Virus record (IMG/VR): IMGVR_UViG_2648501206_000004
Span: 1 to 6,857 of that record
DNA length: 6,857 nt
From: a virus
Lineage: Duplodnaviria; Heunggongvirae; Uroviricota; Caudoviricetes
Direction: 5' to 3' (one strand)
Part shown: positions 1 through 6,857 of the stretch, piece after piece
How the letters are laid out: each line of letters starts with the position of its first letter
Position numbering within the stretch: position 1 is the stretch's first letter
The notes under the pieces: generated by a model
The model's input: only the letters and a program-made list of their open reading frames with translations
The model's database searches: none
Told to the model about the DNA's origin: nothing
Made by a program: the position numbers and the translations under genes

Positions 1-1
1 C

Positions 2-556
2 GTCAGTGTGCTTAACCTGGGTACTATTGATGAACCAGGTCACGCAGATAACACCGCCACTCTCAAACTGAAAAAGACAGCACCGTTCTCTGCTCTGTTG
101 TCTGTTAATGGCGAGCGTCATTCCCAGAAGTCACTGGCAGAATGGATTGAAGACTGGGCCGACTACCTTGTGGGTTTTGATGCTAATGGTGACGCTATTC
201 AGGCAACAAAAGCGGCTGCGGCTGTCCGTAAAATCACGATTGAAGCAAACCAGACCGCTGATTTTGAAGATAATGACTTCAGCGGCAAACGCTCCCTGAT
301 GGAGTCTGTCGAAGCGAAAACCAAAGATATTATGCCTGTGGCATTTGAATTTAAATGCGTTCCGTTTGAAGGTCTGAAAGAACGTCCATTTAAATTACGC
401 CTCAGCATTATCACTGGCGATCGTCCTGTACTGGTTCTGCGCATTATTCAGCTGGAGGCGGTGCAGGAAGAAATGGCTAACGAATTTCGTGATCTGCTTG
501 TTGAGAAATTCAAAGACAGCAAAGTAGAAACCTTTATTGGTACTTTCACCGCCTGA
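2..556 (+). CDS. Prophage hypothetical protein, 5'-partial (open to the window edge); possibly YfdQ-like
   Basis: The frame is open from position 2 (codons gtc, agt, gtg...) with no stop back to the edge, so the listed GTG start at 8 is probably internal. Stop TGA at 554..556. It lies immediately upstream of, and co-directional with, an HD-domain gene, as yfdQ-yfdR does in KplE1 (recalled synteny, not a sequence match). Confidence 0.6.
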
Positions 557-568
557 TTTCATTACTGC

Positions 569-590
569 AAATGCCCCTGCGGGGGCATTT
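569..590 (+). terminator. Putative intrinsic terminator or attenuator hairpin after the first ORF
   Basis: Perfect 9-bp inverted repeat AAATGCCCC / GGGGCATTT with a 4-nt loop TGCG, 13 nt after the stop. The T-tract is short (TTTAT), so termination may be partial. Confidence 0.45.
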
Positions 591-683
591 ATGGAAACGT
601 AATTGACTCAATAATCGCCGGATGGTGAGGGCTTCCTTTTACCAGAATTCAGCGTGGTGCAGCACATATACGCGGAGAACAAA

Positions 684-1220
684 ATGTCATTTATTAAAAC
701 TTTTTCCGGGAAGCATTTTTATTATGACAGGATAAATAAAGACGACATCGTGATTAACGATATCGCGGTTTCCCTTTCAAATATCTGTCGCTTTGCCGGT
801 CATCTTTCACACTTCTACAGTGTCGCCCAACATGCGGTGCTTTGCAGCCAGCTGGTGCAGCAGGAATTTGCTTTTGAAGCGTTAATGCATGATGCAACAG
901 AAGCATATTGCCAGGACATCCCCGCGCCACTGAAACGCCTTCTTCCTGACTATAAACGGATGGAAGAAAAAATAGACGCCGTAATCCGTGAGAAATACGG
1001 GTTACCTCCTGTTATGAGCACGCCAGTGAAATATGCCGATCTCATTATGCTGGCAACCGAACGCCGCGATCTCGGGCTTGATGATGGCTCTTTCTGGCCG
1101 GTACTGGAAGGCATCCCGGCAACAGAGATGTTCAACGTGATTCCAATGCCACCGGGCCATGCCTACGGGATGTTTATGGAACGCTTTCACGAGTTATCGG
1201 AGTTACGCAAATGCGCATGA
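684..1220 (+). CDS. yfdR: HD-domain phosphohydrolase (5'-deoxynucleotidase YfdR/YfbR-like)
   Basis: HD-superfamily motifs are visible in the translation: FAGHLSH, then LMHDATEAY (the HD dyad), then PVKYADLIML. Start placed at ATG 684 (MSFIKTF...) with a GGAG Shine-Dalgarno 6 nt upstream, rather than the GTG at 654 in the ORF track. This gives 178 aa, the length I recall for K-12 YfdR. The symbol rests on motif and recalled length and synteny, not a search. Confidence 0.8.
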   Translation: MSFIKTFSGKHFYYDRINKDDIVINDIAVSLSNICRFAGHLSHFYSVAQHAVLCSQLVQQEFAFEALMHDATEAYCQDIPAPLKRLLPDYKRMEEKIDAVIREKYGLPPVMSTPVKYADLIMLATERRDLGLDDGSFWPVLEGIPATEMFNVIPMPPGHAYGMFMERFHELSELRKCA

Positions 1221-1573
1221 ATGTTTTCGAAATGGAAGGGTTTCTTCGCGGGAGATGTGTACCACGAGACCTGAAAGTGAATGAAACGGATGCTGAATAC
1301 CTGGTGCGTAAATTAGATGCGCTTGAAGCTAAATGTGCAGCACTGGAAAACAAAGTAATACCAGTGTCAGCTGAACTGCCACCAGCAAATGAAAGTGTTC
1401 TGTTATTTGATGCTAACGGAGAAGGCTGGCTGATTGGCTGGCGTTCTCTCTGGTACACATGGGGGCAAAAAGAAACCGGAGAATGGCAGTGGACATTTCA
1501 GGTCGGGGACCTTGAAAACGTCAATATCACTCACTGGGCAGTAATGCCGAAAGCACCGGAGAATAAGAAATGA
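1211..1573 (+). CDS. yfdS: Small prophage hypothetical protein (YfdS-like)
   Basis: 120-aa ORF overlapping the upstream stop (ATG at 1211 with GGAG 8 nt upstream; an alternative ATG at 1217 forms an ATGA overlap with the stop at 1218..1220). Coiled-coil-like N-terminus. The symbol is inferred from position after the HD gene and from the recalled 120-aa length of YfdS. Confidence 0.55.
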   Translation: MRMNVFEMEGFLRGRCVPRDLKVNETDAEYLVRKLDALEAKCAALENKVIPVSAELPPANESVLLFDANGEGWLIGWRSLWYTWGQKETGEWQWTFQVGDLENVNITHWAVMPKAPENKK

Positions 1574-1785
1574 GCGTGATAAAAACTCATACAGGAATTG
1601 TTATTACCCGAAACGGTCCGCAGGTAAAAAAACTGCACCAGACAAAGCGGATGTGGGTCGTCGGAAAAAACGAGTTTTACCACAAAGAAACCGGACGCCG
1701 CCACTTTGCAGAAAATACGCGCCGCCGACTGCTCCTGGACAGCATCAGGCCAATTAAACAGGTAGCAACCATAGAACAAAATTAA
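1570..1785 (+). CDS. Small basic prophage hypothetical protein
   Basis: 71-aa ORF whose ATG overlaps the upstream stop as ATGA (1570..1573), with GGAG 8 nt upstream. Lys/Arg-rich. No family recognised. Confidence 0.5.
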   Translation: MSVIKTHTGIVITRNGPQVKKLHQTKRMWVVGKNEFYHKETGRRHFAENTRRRLLLDSIRPIKQVATIEQN

Positions 1786-1846
1786 TTATCAGGACTGAAA
1801 TTTGATATTACTGCCCGTGTGCAGCGGGTTAAGTGGAGAAACAGCC

Positions 1847-2056
1847 ATGGCAAAACTAATGAAAGCGAGCCAATGGGGACGCCGTGAATTCTCTAATGGC
1901 TCAATTCCTGACAACCGAACGATAAAACGCTGGGTCGAGAACGGTCTGCTCATGGGGCGTATCGTGGACGGTTCTGTTTTTGTCTGCGAAACAGAAAAAT
2001 GGGGAGTCGACTCAATGGTTAGTCAAGCTGTTCGCAAGTTAATAAATGAGGGGTGA
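1847..2056 (+). CDS. xis: Excisionase (lambda Xis-like recombination directionality factor)
   Basis: About 69 aa from ATG 1847 (GGAG at 1835..1838). The translation (ASQWGRREFSNGSIPDNRTIKRWVENGLLMGRIVDGSVF) parallels the lambda Xis winged-helix region (QEWNARQRRPRSLETVRRWVRECRIFPPPVKDGREYLF). The stop abuts or overlaps the integrase start, the classic xis-int arrangement. The TTG start at 1802 in the ORF track is considered less likely. Confidence 0.7.
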   Translation: MAKLMKASQWGRREFSNGSIPDNRTIKRWVENGLLMGRIVDGSVFVCETEKWGVDSMVSQAVRKLINEG

Positions 2057-2058
2057 CC

Positions 2059-3237
2059 ATGGCGGCAAGGCCACGTAAAAAAGAATACAGACATCTTCCT
2101 GATTATCTGATTTTTGATAAAGATCGAGGTGTTTATAAATTCACACTTATTACCGGAAAGAAGAAAAATATAGGTAAGGATAGGGCAATAGCCATTGCAA
2201 TCGCCAGAGAGTACAACCTGAGGATGCGACCAGAATTATCTCCATCAGTAGATAATCTTATTAGAGAATCTGGCGGTGTTATCGGAGAAGCAAAACCATT
2301 TGCTGAACATGTTGATCACATAATGGCCCGAATTATCGAAGACGAACGTCCTTCCCAGAGCACCTTAGATGACTGGAAAAATGACGCTCTACGCGTAAAA
2401 GCGTTTTTCGTAAATGTTCCGGCATGCGATATCGAACTTGAACACGTTAATACCTACATCAACAAATATCATGCCAGCGCATCCGCAAATGTGCAGAACA
2501 GAAAGGTCAGCTTTCTTAAAAAGTTGTTCTCTTATGCGGTCGATGAATCACTAATGCTGGATAACCCGGCCATCAGAAAAAAAATGCGTAGGACTGATGA
2601 GAAGAAAAGACGGCGCCTGTCACTCGAGCATTTTATAGCTATCAGGCAGGCCGCTGCACCATGGTTAAGAACAGCAATGGACCTAGCATTGCAGACTACA
2701 CATGCACGACTCGAAGTATCGCGAATCCGTTACTCAATTCGCGAACCTAAAGACGGTATATGTGGATGTGTCTGGTTCGAACAACCACAAAATGGCATAT
2801 ATGGGACGCTTTACATCCACAGGCAAAAAGTGCAACAAAAAGAGGCGTCACACGTTGCAATACCAATTGGTGAAGAGTTGAAACGGATAATTGACGATAG
2901 CCGAGATAATGTGGCCAGTCCGTTTGTCGTTCACAGGCTCCCAGAACGCCAAGTTAAACGCAGCAAAGAGGTTTCACATCCTACTCAAGTTGCACCGGAC
3001 TATTTGAGTAGGTCGTTTTCAGCTACACGGGACAAACTAGGTTTATGCGACAATCTACCAATGGATGAAAGACCAACCTTTCACGAAATTCGAGCACTAG
3101 CAGCGCATCTATTCGATCAGCAGGGTATCGATCCACAAGGACGAATGGCGCACAGCGATGCGAAGTCAACCAAGATCTACACGCAAAATCATATAGATTG
3201 GGTTGTCGTTCCCCATGGAGAAATTAAAGCCAGCTAA
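2059..3237 (+). CDS. int: Tyrosine site-specific integrase, lambda Int family, with N-terminal arm-binding domain
   Basis: The N-terminus (MAARPRKKEYRHLPDYLIF...GKDRAIAIAIAREYNLRM) parallels the lambda Int arm-binding domain (MGRRRSHERRDLPPNLYI...GRDRRIAITEAIQANIEL). The C-terminus carries HEIRALAAH (box II H-x-x-R) and AHSDAKSTKIYT, with the H-to-Y spacing of lambda Int H333/Y342. Start placed at ATG 2059 (GAGGGG Shine-Dalgarno 6 nt upstream); a GTG at 2053 would overlap the xis stop as GTGA. Confidence 0.92.
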   Translation: MAARPRKKEYRHLPDYLIFDKDRGVYKFTLITGKKKNIGKDRAIAIAIAREYNLRMRPELSPSVDNLIRESGGVIGEAKPFAEHVDHIMARIIEDERPSQSTLDDWKNDALRVKAFFVNVPACDIELEHVNTYINKYHASASANVQNRKVSFLKKLFSYAVDESLMLDNPAIRKKMRRTDEKKRRRLSLEHFIAIRQAAAPWLRTAMDLALQTTHARLEVSRIRYSIREPKDGICGCVWFEQPQNGIYGTLYIHRQKVQQKEASHVAIPIGEELKRIIDDSRDNVASPFVVHRLPERQVKRSKEVSHPTQVAPDYLSRSFSATRDKLGLCDNLPMDERPTFHEIRALAAHLFDQQGIDPQGRMAHSDAKSTKIYTQNHIDWVVVPHGEIKAS

Positions 3238-3271
3238 TAATAAATTACTCCCTTTATTGCTTTAGTATAAA

Positions 3272-3303
3272 GCAGAGCAAACCAAATTGGACGGGTTGCT
3301 CTG
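3272..3303. terminator. Bidirectional intrinsic terminator hairpin between convergent int and the cargo gene
   Basis: Inverted repeat CAGAGCAA(ACC) / (GG)TTGCTCTG at 3273..3283 and 3293..3303 with a 9-nt loop, about 35 nt past the int stop and 28 nt past the cargo-gene stop. The flanks are AT-rich on both sides. Confidence 0.5.
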
Positions 3304-3330
3304 TGTTGGAAGTTGAGGAATGTATTAATT

Positions 3331-4182
3331 TCAAAGTGAGTAATTGGAGAGTTCTTCAATCATTGACCGATAATGTATACCGATACTATCGGCAAATTTT
3401 TCGCCCATCCCCTCAACTGACGCAATTAGGCAGTCTGTAGCAACCTTCAGGGATATTATGACTAAGCAGATGTCAGCTTCACTGGGTGCACCATGACCGC
3501 TAAATTCATCAATCCTGTGGATAGCCAGTGGCAATGGATGAGCCAGATTTGATAGTAACTGGTGATGTAGTGCAATGTCGGCTAACCGCGGGCAGCGAGC
3601 TTCGAACTCAGCTTTGGTATAATACATTTCGGCCCTGTTTTTGAGACTATTCTTTTGTTCTTTAGATAGTGAACTATAGAATTCATGGTTCACTATCTCC
3701 TCCTGCTGCTTTGGTATGCCGGTGAAAAACTCCTCCAGTGATTCTTCAGATTCACCAGCCTTCAGTCTGATATCACGCCATTTAACATTTCTGTCTTTCT
3801 GGAAAATTCGAAAACGAAAGTCAGCCTCCGCTTCCGAGACCGTTTCCGTTCCGTAATAAAAAAGCGCCTGAAAATTTTCCATCACACTTCTGGACACAAG
3901 TGCGATAGTGGTTACATCCCATACTGTATCATCGGGATTAACTCCGTTTCGCAGTACTGGTAGTAGTTTCTTAAGACTATGCGCAGTCAACACTTGACGA
4001 GTGAAAATATTTGCAGCCCGTATTCCCCTGCCGTCAGTCTTAATTCCGCTTTGATTCAGTGATATGGCCGCGGAAATTTCACAAGCGCGGCAGAAGATCT
4101 TATAAAGGCTAATGTAAGACCTCTCAACCTCAGTGTGTTCTCGGAAACGAATGTTACTGCCTTTTTTAGTTCTTTTTTTCAT
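3331..4182 (-). CDS. Orphan cargo (moron) protein of unknown function, 283 aa; candidate accessory or defence gene
   Basis: Long minus-strand ORF convergent with int. ATG at 4180..4182 is preceded on the mRNA by AGAGG with a 7-nt spacer. Hand counts on two 60-nt samples inside it gave about 40% and 47% GC, against about 53% for one sample in the downstream autotransporter. Basic N-terminus (MKKRTKKGSNIRFREH). Two R-x6-H spacings in the C-terminal half (RLADIALH, RIDEFSGH). I do not recognise the family. Confidence 0.7.
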   Translation of the reverse strand: MKKRTKKGSNIRFREHTEVERSYISLYKIFCRACEISAAISLNQSGIKTDGRGIRAANIFTRQVLTAHSLKKLLPVLRNGVNPDDTVWDVTTIALVSRSVMENFQALFYYGTETVSEAEADFRFRIFQKDRNVKWRDIRLKAGESEESLEEFFTGIPKQQEEIVNHEFYSSLSKEQKNSLKNRAEMYYTKAEFEARCPRLADIALHHQLLSNLAHPLPLAIHRIDEFSGHGAPSEADICLVIISLKVATDCLIASVEGMGEKFADSIGIHYRSMIEELSNYSL

Positions 4183-4374
4183 TATCCAGCCTCTAGTAGT
4201 TTATTCTGGCATTATGTCACACAACTCTTCGAAACTATTCAAACATGGGGAGAAACCACCATGTAAGCCATTGAAGTATATAGAGCAGATTATGTCGAAA
4301 AAGCACTGTTTGTTTATACATGCAAATGGTACTTCTAACCAGCAATAGCGCGGCTCTCAGCGTTTTACAAGCGG

Positions 4375-4423
4375 CGTCATGGGGTGTCGGGGGTCGGAGG
4401 TTCAAATCCTCTCGTGCCGACCA
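4375..4423 (+). repeat. Prophage att core: 3' 49-nt fragment of tRNA-Pro(GGG) (proL-like), lacking the 5' half
   Basis: Anticodon loop AUGGGGU (anticodon GGG), T-arm GGAGG-TTCAAAT-CCTCT, acceptor 3' strand CGTGCCG, discriminator A and CCA are all present. The complementary 5' acceptor strand CGGCACG is absent from the preceding 100 nt, so this is not an intact tRNA. It matches my recollection of the E. coli proL 3' end. Confidence 0.65.
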
Positions 4424-4431
4424 AAAATCCC

Positions 4432-4463
4432 AAAAAAAACCAACCGTAAAGGTTGGTTTTTTT
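4432..4463. terminator. Rho-independent terminator, bidirectional (native tRNA-Pro terminator; also serves the convergent autotransporter gene)
   Basis: A8-CCAACC-GTAAA-GGTTGG-T7: a 6-bp GC-containing stem extended by an A-run/T-run, with a 5-nt loop. It lies 9 nt after the tRNA CCA end and about 60 nt past the minus-strand autotransporter stop. Confidence 0.8.
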
Positions 4464-4524
4464 ATATCTGCATTTAATTCGATAAACAGACCGCGACACA
4501 TCACGGCCTGTTTATTGTCTGTTA

Positions 4525-6857
4525 TCAGAACGTCCAGACCACACCCGCCTGGGTATTCCACGGCGATTCTACCCCTGCGCCATTGCCATAGCTGACTGAC
4601 AAATGACCGCTTAACGTCGGGGTAAACGATGACCTTATCCCAGCCTGATAAACGCCACTGGTTCCAGCCACATCATTATTAAATTTGCCATCGTCATTAA
4701 CTTTCACCTGGTTAGAATCGGCGTATTCCTGACGCACGGCGGCTTTCAGCCAGGGTTCCAGCGTCGTACCGTTTTGCAGGTCCATGTGATAGCTTACCGC
4801 CGTTCCCGCTTCAGCGCGTAATATCCGGGTATTTCCCACGTCCGCGCGCATGCCGTTTGATAACGTGTAGTCCTGACCATCTGTGGTAAAGCCGGTAAAG
4901 GCCAGATAGGGTCTAACACTCCACAATCCGTCAACCCAACGGAACCCGCTCTCAACATGAGCACCCGCGCCGTTACTATTGTAATCGCCAAACGCTGTTG
5001 CCCCATTACTCATCTTGCCATGGATGGTGTTGGCAAAACGGTCAACTTTCACCACCCCATCAACATAGGCACCGTTCTGATGCTCCCAACCGGCATAAGC
5101 ACCCAGGGTATAGCTATCGACATTGCCTTTGCCGCCGCGATCAAAACCAATATCAGAATGAGAGTAACCAAAGAACAAGCCGCGAATTGTGCTGCTTTCT
5201 TCACGGGAGAAACGGCTATCGATACCGAGCGTCAGGCCCGTCAATGTTTGCTCAAAACCAGCTCCCGCATCAGTGGTCACGTTGTTGCGGGTGTTAATTG
5301 CCGAACTCCACATCGCCGTATCGTAACTAACGCCTTTTACGCTACCAAGACGCTCACGCACGGTGTCCAGTTCTGCATCAAATACCAGCGGTTGTGCGGC
5401 CGCCATATTCAGCACATCAGTGGTTGAAGGGGTAATTTGCGCGCGATTCTCTGCCAGACTCCAGCTATGGTTGCCATTATCCAGCAAGGTATATTCATAC
5501 GTACCGATATCAACAACGCCTCCGGCATTGCCCAACGTAAATGCAGCATCACCGCCGCCCGTTGTTACCAGTGTAAGGCTATCTCCTGCTGCCGGGCTGG
5601 CACCGGTGTCCGTCACGAATATTTTGAAATCACCTGTTGCCTGACCGGTGACGTTGAGCTGATCGCTCTGATGATTAGCCATATCGGTACGCATATAAAA
5701 ATTGCCGTTTCCCGACAGGGTATTGGTGGTCAACGTAATGAAATTTTTCGCACTTGCCGTCACTGATGAACGAGTCACTGGCTCATCCATCATAATCACA
5801 TTTGCGTCAGACATCGCAAGGTTGGCTAAGTTGAGGAGGGTGTTTTGGTTCGTCGTAGTGATATCGGCAATGATGGTCCATACGCTATTTTCGAGCGAAA
5901 CGTCCGCTTTGCTGGTATCCACGGCACCATGCGTTCTAAAAGAAGCGCCCTCAGAAACCACTACCTTACCCACCAACATTGCGGGTGCATAATTTATTTG
6001 CGGCTTCATGACCTCAAGAATGCCATCATTCCCTCTGACTGACACGTTAACCATTGTGCCAGCCCAGACGTTAGCGCGGCCATTGTTGATAACCATATTT
6101 TCAGAGATGGCTTTTGAGGAATACGTGATACTTCCATTCTGATCTGATCGACCGAGATCATATACCGCATTTGCCTGCACTCTCGTCCCAGTATCCTTTC
6201 CCAGCGATTGCATAGTGGCATGCTCATCAAGGATAGTGTCAATGGCCTGCGTGTCCTCCATAACAATAAGCCCGGAACCATCATCCAGTTCATAATTTTT
6301 TGACACACCATCTTTTATACTAAATTGGCCTTTACTGTTTGTACCACTCACTTCCAGCGCATTCGTTGAGACAATTAATTTTCCGCCTGCTTTTTTATCA
6401 ACGCCAGTTGCAGTCCCGCCATCCATAACCTCCAGTAAGCCGCCACTATCTACAGTAGTATTATAAGCGAAGTCATTTTCTTCAACTCGCAAACTTCCGC
6501 CGTTTTCCAACAGCATATTGTTTGCAATTCCATTCTTGATATCGAACTGACCGAGACGGTTTGTTCCGAATACCTCCATGACCCGCGTGGTTGCTTTAAT
6601 AGCACCGCCTGCCTTCTGATCTACCGCAAATGCTAATCCCCCGTCTTTAACCTCCAGTAATCCTCCCTTTTCGATAGCGGCAAAGACGGCAATCCCATCT
6701 TTTTCAACAATTAAGCGCCCGCCTTTAATCGTGGGATCATTCGCCGCGCCATAAACCTGTAGCACACCATTATTGAGCGTAGTCTGGTTTGCCGCGCCAC
6801 CCATTTGAACAATTTGATAACCATCATTTAATACTGAGTACTGATGAATCCCCTAAT
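4525..6857 (-). CDS. yejO: AIDA-I/Ag43-type autotransporter adhesin, N-terminally truncated by the window edge (YejO-like by position)
   Basis: The C-terminus ends ...PWNTQAGVVWTF, a typical autotransporter beta-barrel terminus, preceded by about 280 aa of alternating-polarity beta-strand sequence. The passenger region has repetitive G-G-x-L-x-V motifs typical of a beta-helix. The reading frame stays open from 6804 to the window end at 6857, so the true start is outside the window. The symbol is by synteny only: as I recall, K-12 has an autotransporter gene, yejO, immediately downstream of proL on the opposite strand. Confidence 0.85.

Follow-up and report, generated by a model that had tools for sequence, protein, structure and literature searches.

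Where in the chromosome does the phage element of IMG/VR virus record IMGVR_UViG_2648501206_000004 sit, and from which phages were its parts drawn? The window analysed here is the whole stretch of 6,857 nucleotides (nt) at positions 1 to 6,857 of that record, which comes from a virus of the Caudoviricetes. It contains the yfd genes, a candidate excisionase gene, the integrase gene int, a piece of the tRNA gene proL and the chromosomal gene yejO (Table 1). A sequence-only reading of positions 1 to 3237 had proposed a mosaic prophage, in which a block of yfd genes characteristic of the K-12 prophage KplE1/CPS-53 was joined to a lambda-type xis-int next to a tRNA-Pro core. Our analysis indicates that the window is very probably the right (integrase-proximal) end of a lambdoid prophage integrated in the 3' half of proL, in the interval between yejM and yejO, and that this prophage is a modular mosaic.

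Results

The junction at proL

Positions 4375-4423 of the window were identical to the final 49 nt of the genuine proL gene. An exact 46-nt match to the shared attachment (att) core was found at 4378-4423; this match was unique in the window, where 0 were expected by chance, and ARAGORN detected no complete tRNA in the window. The window was aligned with the other prophage end of strain VE-V11-M, the right ends of two further prophages and the sequences that follow int in phages Eeyore and Flotzy. This alignment of left prophage ends (attL), right prophage ends (attR) and phage sites (attP) revealed a common core of 46-49 nt, and the block CATGGGGTGTCGGGGGTCGGAGGTTCAAATCCTCTCGTGCCGACCAAAA was common to all aligned att sequences. 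On the 5' side of the core, the window resembled phage attP, and short arm blocks were conserved among the relatives. Positions 4245-4465, which cover the arm, the core and the terminator, were 74-75% identical to the sequence immediately 3' of int in Eeyore and Flotzy. On the 3' side of the core, the terminator hairpin of the window was unlike the phage-supplied one present at attP and attL. At the left junction of the VE-V11-M prophage (attL), ARAGORN identified an intact tRNA-Pro(GGG) beside yejM.

These observations match what is usually seen when a phage inserts into the 3' half of a tRNA gene and brings a substitute 3' end with it; the window holds attR. Int would recombine the phage attP, made of the proL 3' half and its own terminator, with the chromosomal gene. 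The product would be an intact tRNA at attL, and the native 3' half would be displaced to attR, where it forms the copy seen in the window. Catalysis by Int of this recombination between attP and the bacterial site (attB) is predicted, and the expected structure of attL, attR and attP supports it indirectly. In E. coli O121:H19, proL had already been recorded as a site of prophage insertion (PMC8767318). The tRNA-Pro core that the sequence-only reading had placed beside int does exist as a proL core, but it lies 1.1 kb past int, outside positions 1-3237, with cargo in between.

RefSeq annotates a 78-nt 'tRNA-Pro' at attR elsewhere (NC19, locus positions 10514-10591; VE-V11-M, locus positions 14362-14439), the window equivalent of which is 4346-4423. 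ARAGORN found no tRNA in these sequences of other strains, and the Rfam tRNA model scored 18 bits, below its threshold of 29. Beside the core, the phage arm resembles a decayed tRNA 5' half; the decay is stronger in the window, which gave no tRNA match whatever. An Rfam match to OrzO-P in the window was rejected, being sub-threshold (27.9 vs 60 bits) and corresponding to the proL terminator hairpin.

Integrase and candidate excisionase

The arm-binding N-domain of Int, already recognised in the sequence-only reading, was confirmed by a Pfam match to PF09003 (Arm-DNA-bind_1) over residues 1-56, with 26.7 bits against a cut-off of 22. Int aligned with lambda Int over residues 4-359 (E 4.5e-11). 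The core-binding family PF02899 scored 19.6 bits, under its cut-off of 22.3, although the lambda Int alignment covers this region. K261, H342, R345 and H365 fell in invariant columns when Int was aligned with HK022 Int, and R217 and Y374 matched the HK022 catalytic residues after a one-residue register shift made by eye. Int thus shares with the lambda and HK022 integrases an arm-binding domain and a catalytic domain with the R-K-H-R-H-Y residues, and probably also a core-binding domain. Unlike these, it targets the 3' half of a tRNA gene instead of an intergenic attB, and a cargo cassette separates its gene from the arm; its identity to HK022 Int in the alignment is 28%, and its catalytic domain is longer by approximately 22 residues. 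The layout is that of lambda and HK022, with xis and int in this order and coupled (the int ATG at 2059 lies 2 nt past the xis stop at 2056), and int reading toward the attachment site.

Among the proL prophages, the last third of int (2701-3237) showed 84% DNA identity, compared with 98.8% for the first two-thirds; despite this drop, the Int proteins were 95-96% identical overall. The arm at 4245-4374 was likewise diverged, with approximately 78% identity to NC19 over part of its length. The divergence of the last third of int, together with the differing arm, therefore points to a recombination joint inside int, which would imply that two subtypes of the proL cassette exist.

The protein of 69 amino acids (aa) encoded upstream of int is a probable excisionase of an unannotated family. 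This call is made because of conserved synteny, which is a stronger argument than the fold evidence. In Cronobacter, Pseudescherichia, Mangrovibacter and Eeyore/Flotzy, a 68-74-aa homologue was always found 2-3 nt 5' of a homologous Int (393-395 aa) and a tRNA-Pro core always followed int, while the upstream genes varied. In all, the coupled pair was counted in four other genera and two phages. In phages Eeyore, Flotzy and Phi06_2987 S, the counterpart of the small protein was 84% identical and Int was 76-78% identical at the aa level, with 77% for Eeyore/Flotzy, and the attP directly after int has the same proL 3' half. Unlike the window, these phages have no cargo between int and attP, they carry an exonuclease gene and other small open reading frames (ORFs) 5' of xis, and their yfdQ/yfdR-like genes are just 65-71% DNA-identical to those of the window.

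An hhalign comparison with lambda/HK022 Xis, using a profile built from 26 homologues of the 69-aa protein, gave a weak match in the expected register (P 0.0055, probability 6.5%). The segment W-x(13)-T-I-K-R-W-V...D-G was weakly aligned with the recognition helix and wing of lambda/HK022 Xis, a point of likeness to these systems; a BLASTP comparison with lambda Xis was not significant, and the protein is not detectable as a member of the Xis family. Collectively, the 69-aa protein would most likely direct excision, whereas the term 'lambda-like' is not established for it. From the lambda-like Xis and Int pair proposed earlier, the coupled small gene upstream of int can be retained; its assignment to the lambda Xis family cannot, given the weakness of the similarity. 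A PDB sequence search with the 69-aa protein also returned WD40 repeat proteins, which were rejected as summed weak matches to a D-x-T-I/V-K-x-W-x-x-N-G motif, with no homology.

Complete prophages at the same site

In strain VE-V11-M, the interval from proL/yejM to yejO is occupied by a complete lambda-like prophage, the right end of which is the same as in the window. Its gene order is tail fibres, J, head genes, terminase, lysis, Q, replication, repressor, yfdP-Q-R-S, small ORFs and int. Contigs 99.1% identical to window positions 1-4391 also carry a repressor gene, a cro-like gene, replication genes, RusA and KilA-N. The lambda-like gene order between the junctions is seen in these relatives (VE-V11-M and the 99.1%-identical contig L013), the window itself excepted. 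In RefSeq, near-identical E. coli DNA is annotated with yfdQ, yfdR and a 'phage integrase Arm DNA-binding domain-containing protein', followed by yejO, narP and the ccm genes.

In the contigs nearest the window, homology ends within the proL core, at approximately position 4932 of L013 (window position 4391). The DNA past the core is unrelated and encodes a 1028-aa DnaG-zinc-ribbon/Toprim/P-loop primase-like protein (L013 2002-5088). This suggests that a second integrative element lies in tandem at the same proL site in these contigs.

Several observations weigh against reading the window as the right end of a lambdoid prophage with its own integration module. The window begins within yfdQ, and whether the source strain has a complete prophage is not directly visible. 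A repeat search of positions 3238-4480 gave no credible arm-type Int sites, and a single arm is present in the window. The 69-aa protein matched no excisionase family in Pfam and no PHROG, the sole hit being a sub-threshold DUF4817 helix-turn-helix. Its AlphaFold model displays the strand-helix-helix-hairpin of the expected fold but is poor, with a predicted local distance difference test score (pLDDT) of 57.5, and a Foldseek search of the PDB with this model gave no match at E < 0.4. In EC20-4B-2, the closest complete genome (L001 1-6000), window homology starts at 573 and Mu-like tail/baseplate genes directly adjoin yfdR; because of these tail genes, the EC20-4B-2 copy appears to be rearranged or fused with another phage.

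This rearranged copy, and the lack of structural genes in the window itself, would speak for a phage-derived genomic island or satellite that retains just the integration module and a handful of early genes. We consider such an origin very unlikely: the 99.1%-identical contigs have a full early region, VE-V11-M has head, tail and lysis genes between attL and attR, and the free phages Eeyore and Flotzy bear a homologous cassette. A lambdoid prophage at proL is the reading that we retain.

Spread and relatives of the yfd block

Positions 1-1561 of the window matched K-12 CPS-53 at 96.3% DNA identity, and no match was found beyond. DNA identity to K-12 was 97% for yfdQ, 96.9% for yfdR and 95% for the yfdS-like gene, up to 1561. 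The next ORF, orf71, showed no similarity to K-12 YfdT; it was 96% DNA-identical to a gene of mEp460 and 1720a-02, up to 1754. The genes overlap, the yfdS ATG at 1211 preceding the yfdR stop at 1220 and the orf71 ATG at 1570 preceding the yfdS stop at 1573. These overlaps bear out the earlier description of an HD-domain gene coupled to small ORFs. Its designation as a yfdQ/R/S/T-like block is correct for Q, R and S (95-98% identity), but the fourth ORF is unrelated to YfdT.

The yfdR-yfdS stretch was found at 4114 places in 3039 of 5426 complete E. coli genomes (56%). It ran on into the xis-int of the window in only 107 genomes, and this xis-int was itself present in 109 of the 5426. The segments of positions 1..3237 were colinear in approximately 107 genomes; the proL combination is therefore a standing prophage lineage, accounting for about 2% of complete E. 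coli genomes, and not a unique recent event. The same finding bears on whether the yfd block and xis-int could have been joined by a chimeric assembly. Nothing was found in favour of this possibility, and it is refuted, with practically no room for doubt, by an identical colinear layout in approximately 107 complete genomes and two independent contigs.

The block is also carried by phages SfV, SfIV, mEp460 and cdtI and by Stx2c phages, in which yfdP-Q-R-S belong to the early-left operon and are 96% identical to the window. In SfV, as in the window, the block lies just 5' of xis-int. Unlike the yfd genes, the xis and int genes of these phages are unrelated to those of the window, and homology ends at 1561 or 1754. 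In total, the block was found joined to at least five integration modules (K-12 argW, SfV xis-int, EC147566 serU, the DETEC-C31 integrase and the mEp460 Rci-type integrase). A table of segment identities showed that yfdQ, yfdR and yfdS keep 95-98% DNA identity to every carrier, whatever its integrase.

The sequence-only reading had implied that a phage of the KplE1/CPS-53 type exchanged its TorI/IntS module, specific for argW, for a lambda-type xis-int and thereby moved to proL. In agreement with such an event, yfdQ-yfdR-yfdS are found in the same order and with 95-97% DNA identity in CPS-53, and TorI and IntS have no counterpart in the window, since neither the 69-aa protein and TorI nor Int and IntS showed significant similarity. 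However, YfdT is missing, and the fourth ORF lies past the end of the homology to CPS-53. SfV, mEp460, 1720a-02 and the serU prophage display the same level of identity as CPS-53, which is for this reason not a privileged relative. The presence of the block in more than half of the complete genomes, and in many lambdoid phages, means that it is not characteristic of KplE1, as had been assumed. CPS-53 itself is annotated as a cryptic 10-kb remnant; it sits at argW, with torI and intS at opposite ends of the prophage, whereas the window has adjacent xis and int genes and a core formed by the proL 3' end, flanked by yejO. We regard descent from a KplE1-type phage as highly improbable. On these comparisons, KplE1 shares no more with the element in the window than SfV or mEp460 do. 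The module exchange proposed earlier is borne out, the block being joined elsewhere to unrelated integration modules at other sites, but no direction 'from KplE1' can be deduced.

Additional copies of K-12 yfdQRST inhibit initiation at oriC, and YfdR binds DnaA; homologous ORFs of SfV were noted by the authors of the same study (PMC4776307). By homology, the block in the window would probably act early after induction or infection, restraining host replication.

Breakpoints between modules

The alignments ended at sharp breaks, the position of which depended on the relative. Against K-12 CPS-53/KplE1, SfV, SfIV, cdtI and many Stx2c phages, a match of approximately 96% broke off at 1561. Against mEp460 and 1720a-02, the break was at 1754. 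Against the EC147566 serU and DETEC-C31 prophages, it was found at 1841/1842 and 1843/1844, 3-5 nt 5' of the xis ATG; the aligned identity held through GGAGAAA (to 1841) or GGAGAAACA (to 1843), followed by full divergence. In EC147566, a DUF4224 protein and another recombinase come after the block, up to a tRNA-Ser gene beside mtfA; in DETEC-C31, the block is followed by a different small ORF and integrase. End points were tallied in a rank-spread sample of 60 yfdR-yfdS matches. The most frequent by far was 1561, followed by 1319, 1218-1226, 1751-1754 and 1843. The identity break anticipated near 1786..1846 thus exists against the serU and DETEC-C31 prophages, but not against KplE1. The sequence-only reading had opposed such breakpoints to a colinear alignment of 1..3237 with a single prophage type; both were observed, the colinearity within the proL lineage and the breakpoints against other prophages.

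The history of the block did not follow that of the integrase. yfdQ was 97.1% identical to that of one proL prophage, even though xis, int and cargo of this prophage matched the window at 99.8-100%. Identity of yfdQ was 97-98% to proL prophages and 99.6% to the serU prophage; it is closer to the latter, and the histories of the block and of int are therefore discordant. For orf71, identity reached 99% in some of the proL and serU prophages and 72-73% in others. Judged by these identities, the segment patterns appear to be the product of free module reassortment. The mosaic would arise by recombination between co-resident or co-infecting lambdoid phages, the surviving joints falling at gene boundaries. 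yfdQRS would behave as a near-universal module, conserved at 95-98% and reassorting freely, and xis-int-(cargo)-attP would move as a cassette and determine the integration site. This is classical lambdoid mosaicism, the normal build of such phages according to textbooks.

An alternative is that the 58-nt conserved spacer, which runs up to the xis Shine-Dalgarno sequence, serves as a dedicated linker and not simply as the end of the shared block; as a patch of homology or a regulatory element, it would promote cassette swaps. The spacer is common to three unrelated xis-int modules, with divergence starting 3-5 nt from the ATG, and its 54-nt stretch at 1790-1843 was found at approximately 96% identity in roughly 190 further genomes without the xis-int of the window. 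Moreover, the spacers of DETEC-C31 and NC19 are 95-97% identical even though the adjoining orf71 is just 72-73% identical. Yet a joint at a gene boundary is expected from functional selection alone, and the joints at 1561 and 1754 bypass the spacer. No significant promoter or terminator motif was found in the spacer, and a promoter scan gave no more sites than shuffled sequence. We therefore consider a dedicated linker unlikely and keep to ordinary mosaicism with joints at gene boundaries. Similarly doubtful is the combined proposal that the 69-aa protein founds an unannotated family of directionality factors, so far from Enterobacteriaceae and associated with proL-specific integrases, and that the spacer is a preferred exchange point.

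A variable slot between int and the attachment arm

Homology to other proL prophages ended at 3225-3258 and returned at 4245. The size of the slot thus delimited was 3 bp in Eeyore/Flotzy (L003 7195-7197), 1.2 kb in NC19, 3.0 kb in VE-V11-M and approximately 1 kb in the window. Across Cronobacter, Pseudescherichia, Mangrovibacter and Eeyore/Flotzy, it contained 0 to 2 cargo genes. The int-to-arm slot looks like a hotspot for accessory genes.

The content of the slot differed between strains. NC19 carries an unrelated 283-aa ORF and a 66-aa ORF (L002 9228-10412), and VE-V11-M carries a DUF2971 gene, a recombinase fragment, a TPR protein gene and one more ORF (L009 11260-14262). Cronobacter slots contain either a 224-aa ORF (L016 5407-6081) or a Peptidase_M78 and helix-turn-helix pair (L018 5782-6683).

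ORF283, the cargo gene of the window, had no family match in Pfam, PHROG or PADLOC, and PADLOC assigned no defence family to yfdR, yfdS or orf71 either. It was found in 1 of the 5426 complete E. coli genomes. Approximately 25 homologues were retrieved from Enterobacteriaceae, and the two most distant are annotated DUF5677. The protein is predicted with good confidence to form an all-helical bundle (pLDDT 82).

Feature map and flanking sequence

The coordinates of all features are listed in Table 1. In the 5' to 3' direction, the phage part of the window corresponds to the distal portion of the early-left operon, in which the yfd block with orf71 precedes the coupled xis-int pair, and then come the cargo slot, the phage arm and the tRNA core. 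An 11-bp inverted repeat at 3273-3303, between the convergent stops of int and ORF283, may act as a two-way terminator. On the chromosomal side, yejO is a single long open frame in the window (759 aa from the first ATG); the annotation of EC20-4B-2 gives its equivalent as a pseudogene containing an internal stop.

Table 1 Features of the 6,857-nt window
Feature	Position	Strand	Evidence and remarks
yfdQ, 3' two-thirds (DUF2303 family)	1..556	+	Truncated by window start; Pfam DUF2303 E 2.6e-59, profile positions 89-269 of 269
yfdR, HD-domain 5'-deoxynucleotidase homologue, 180 aa	678..1220	+	PHROG 318 E 8e-110; weak Pfam YfbR-like/HD_3 matches
yfdS-like gene, 120 aa, DUF551 C-terminal part	1211..1573	+	PHROG 583 E 1.9e-81; Pfam DUF551 at cut-off
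orf71, 71 aa, PHROG 1226 (function unknown), not YfdT	1570..1785	+	PHROG 1226 E 2.3e-40
Intergenic spacer, 61 nt, carries xis Shine-Dalgarno sequence	1786..1846	+	Alignment with prophages of other integration modules
Candidate excisionase (recombination directionality factor), 69 aa, uncharacterised family	1847..2056	+	Synteny; weak Xis profile match
Lambda-family tyrosine integrase, 392 aa, arm-binding N-domain, proL-specific	2059..3237	+	PF09003; lambda Int alignment
Variable cargo cassette between int and att arm	3259..4244	.	Homology to other proL prophages interrupted here
ORF283, 283 aa, inside cargo cassette	3331..4182	-	ORF list
Int-proximal phage arm of attachment site	4245..4374	+	Likeness to post-int sequence of Eeyore/Flotzy
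att core: proL 3' 49 nt (tRNA-Pro GGG, anticodon stem to CCA) + AAAA	4375..4427	+	Identical block in attL, attR and phage attP
Native proL terminator hairpin, bacterial side of attR	4433..4463	+	13-bp perfect inverted repeat; terminator scan match on minus strand
yejO autotransporter, 759 aa, chromosomal flank	4525..6804	-	Pfam AIDA, Pertactin and Autotransporter domains

Discussion

Beyond bookkeeping, the significance of these observations is small. The proL-specific xis-int-attP cassette has been delimited, and its small protein is still annotated as hypothetical. yfdQRS should not be read as a marker of KplE1. The locus also provides a quantified example of modular exchange, in which one accessory block is combined with five or more integration modules and the joints fall at gene boundaries. 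If the spacer did serve as an exchange point, lambdoid phages sharing yfdQRS would be able to swap whole xis-int-attP cassettes through it and so alter their chromosomal address. The slot between int and the attachment site may be a useful place for finding accessory or defence genes carried by phages.

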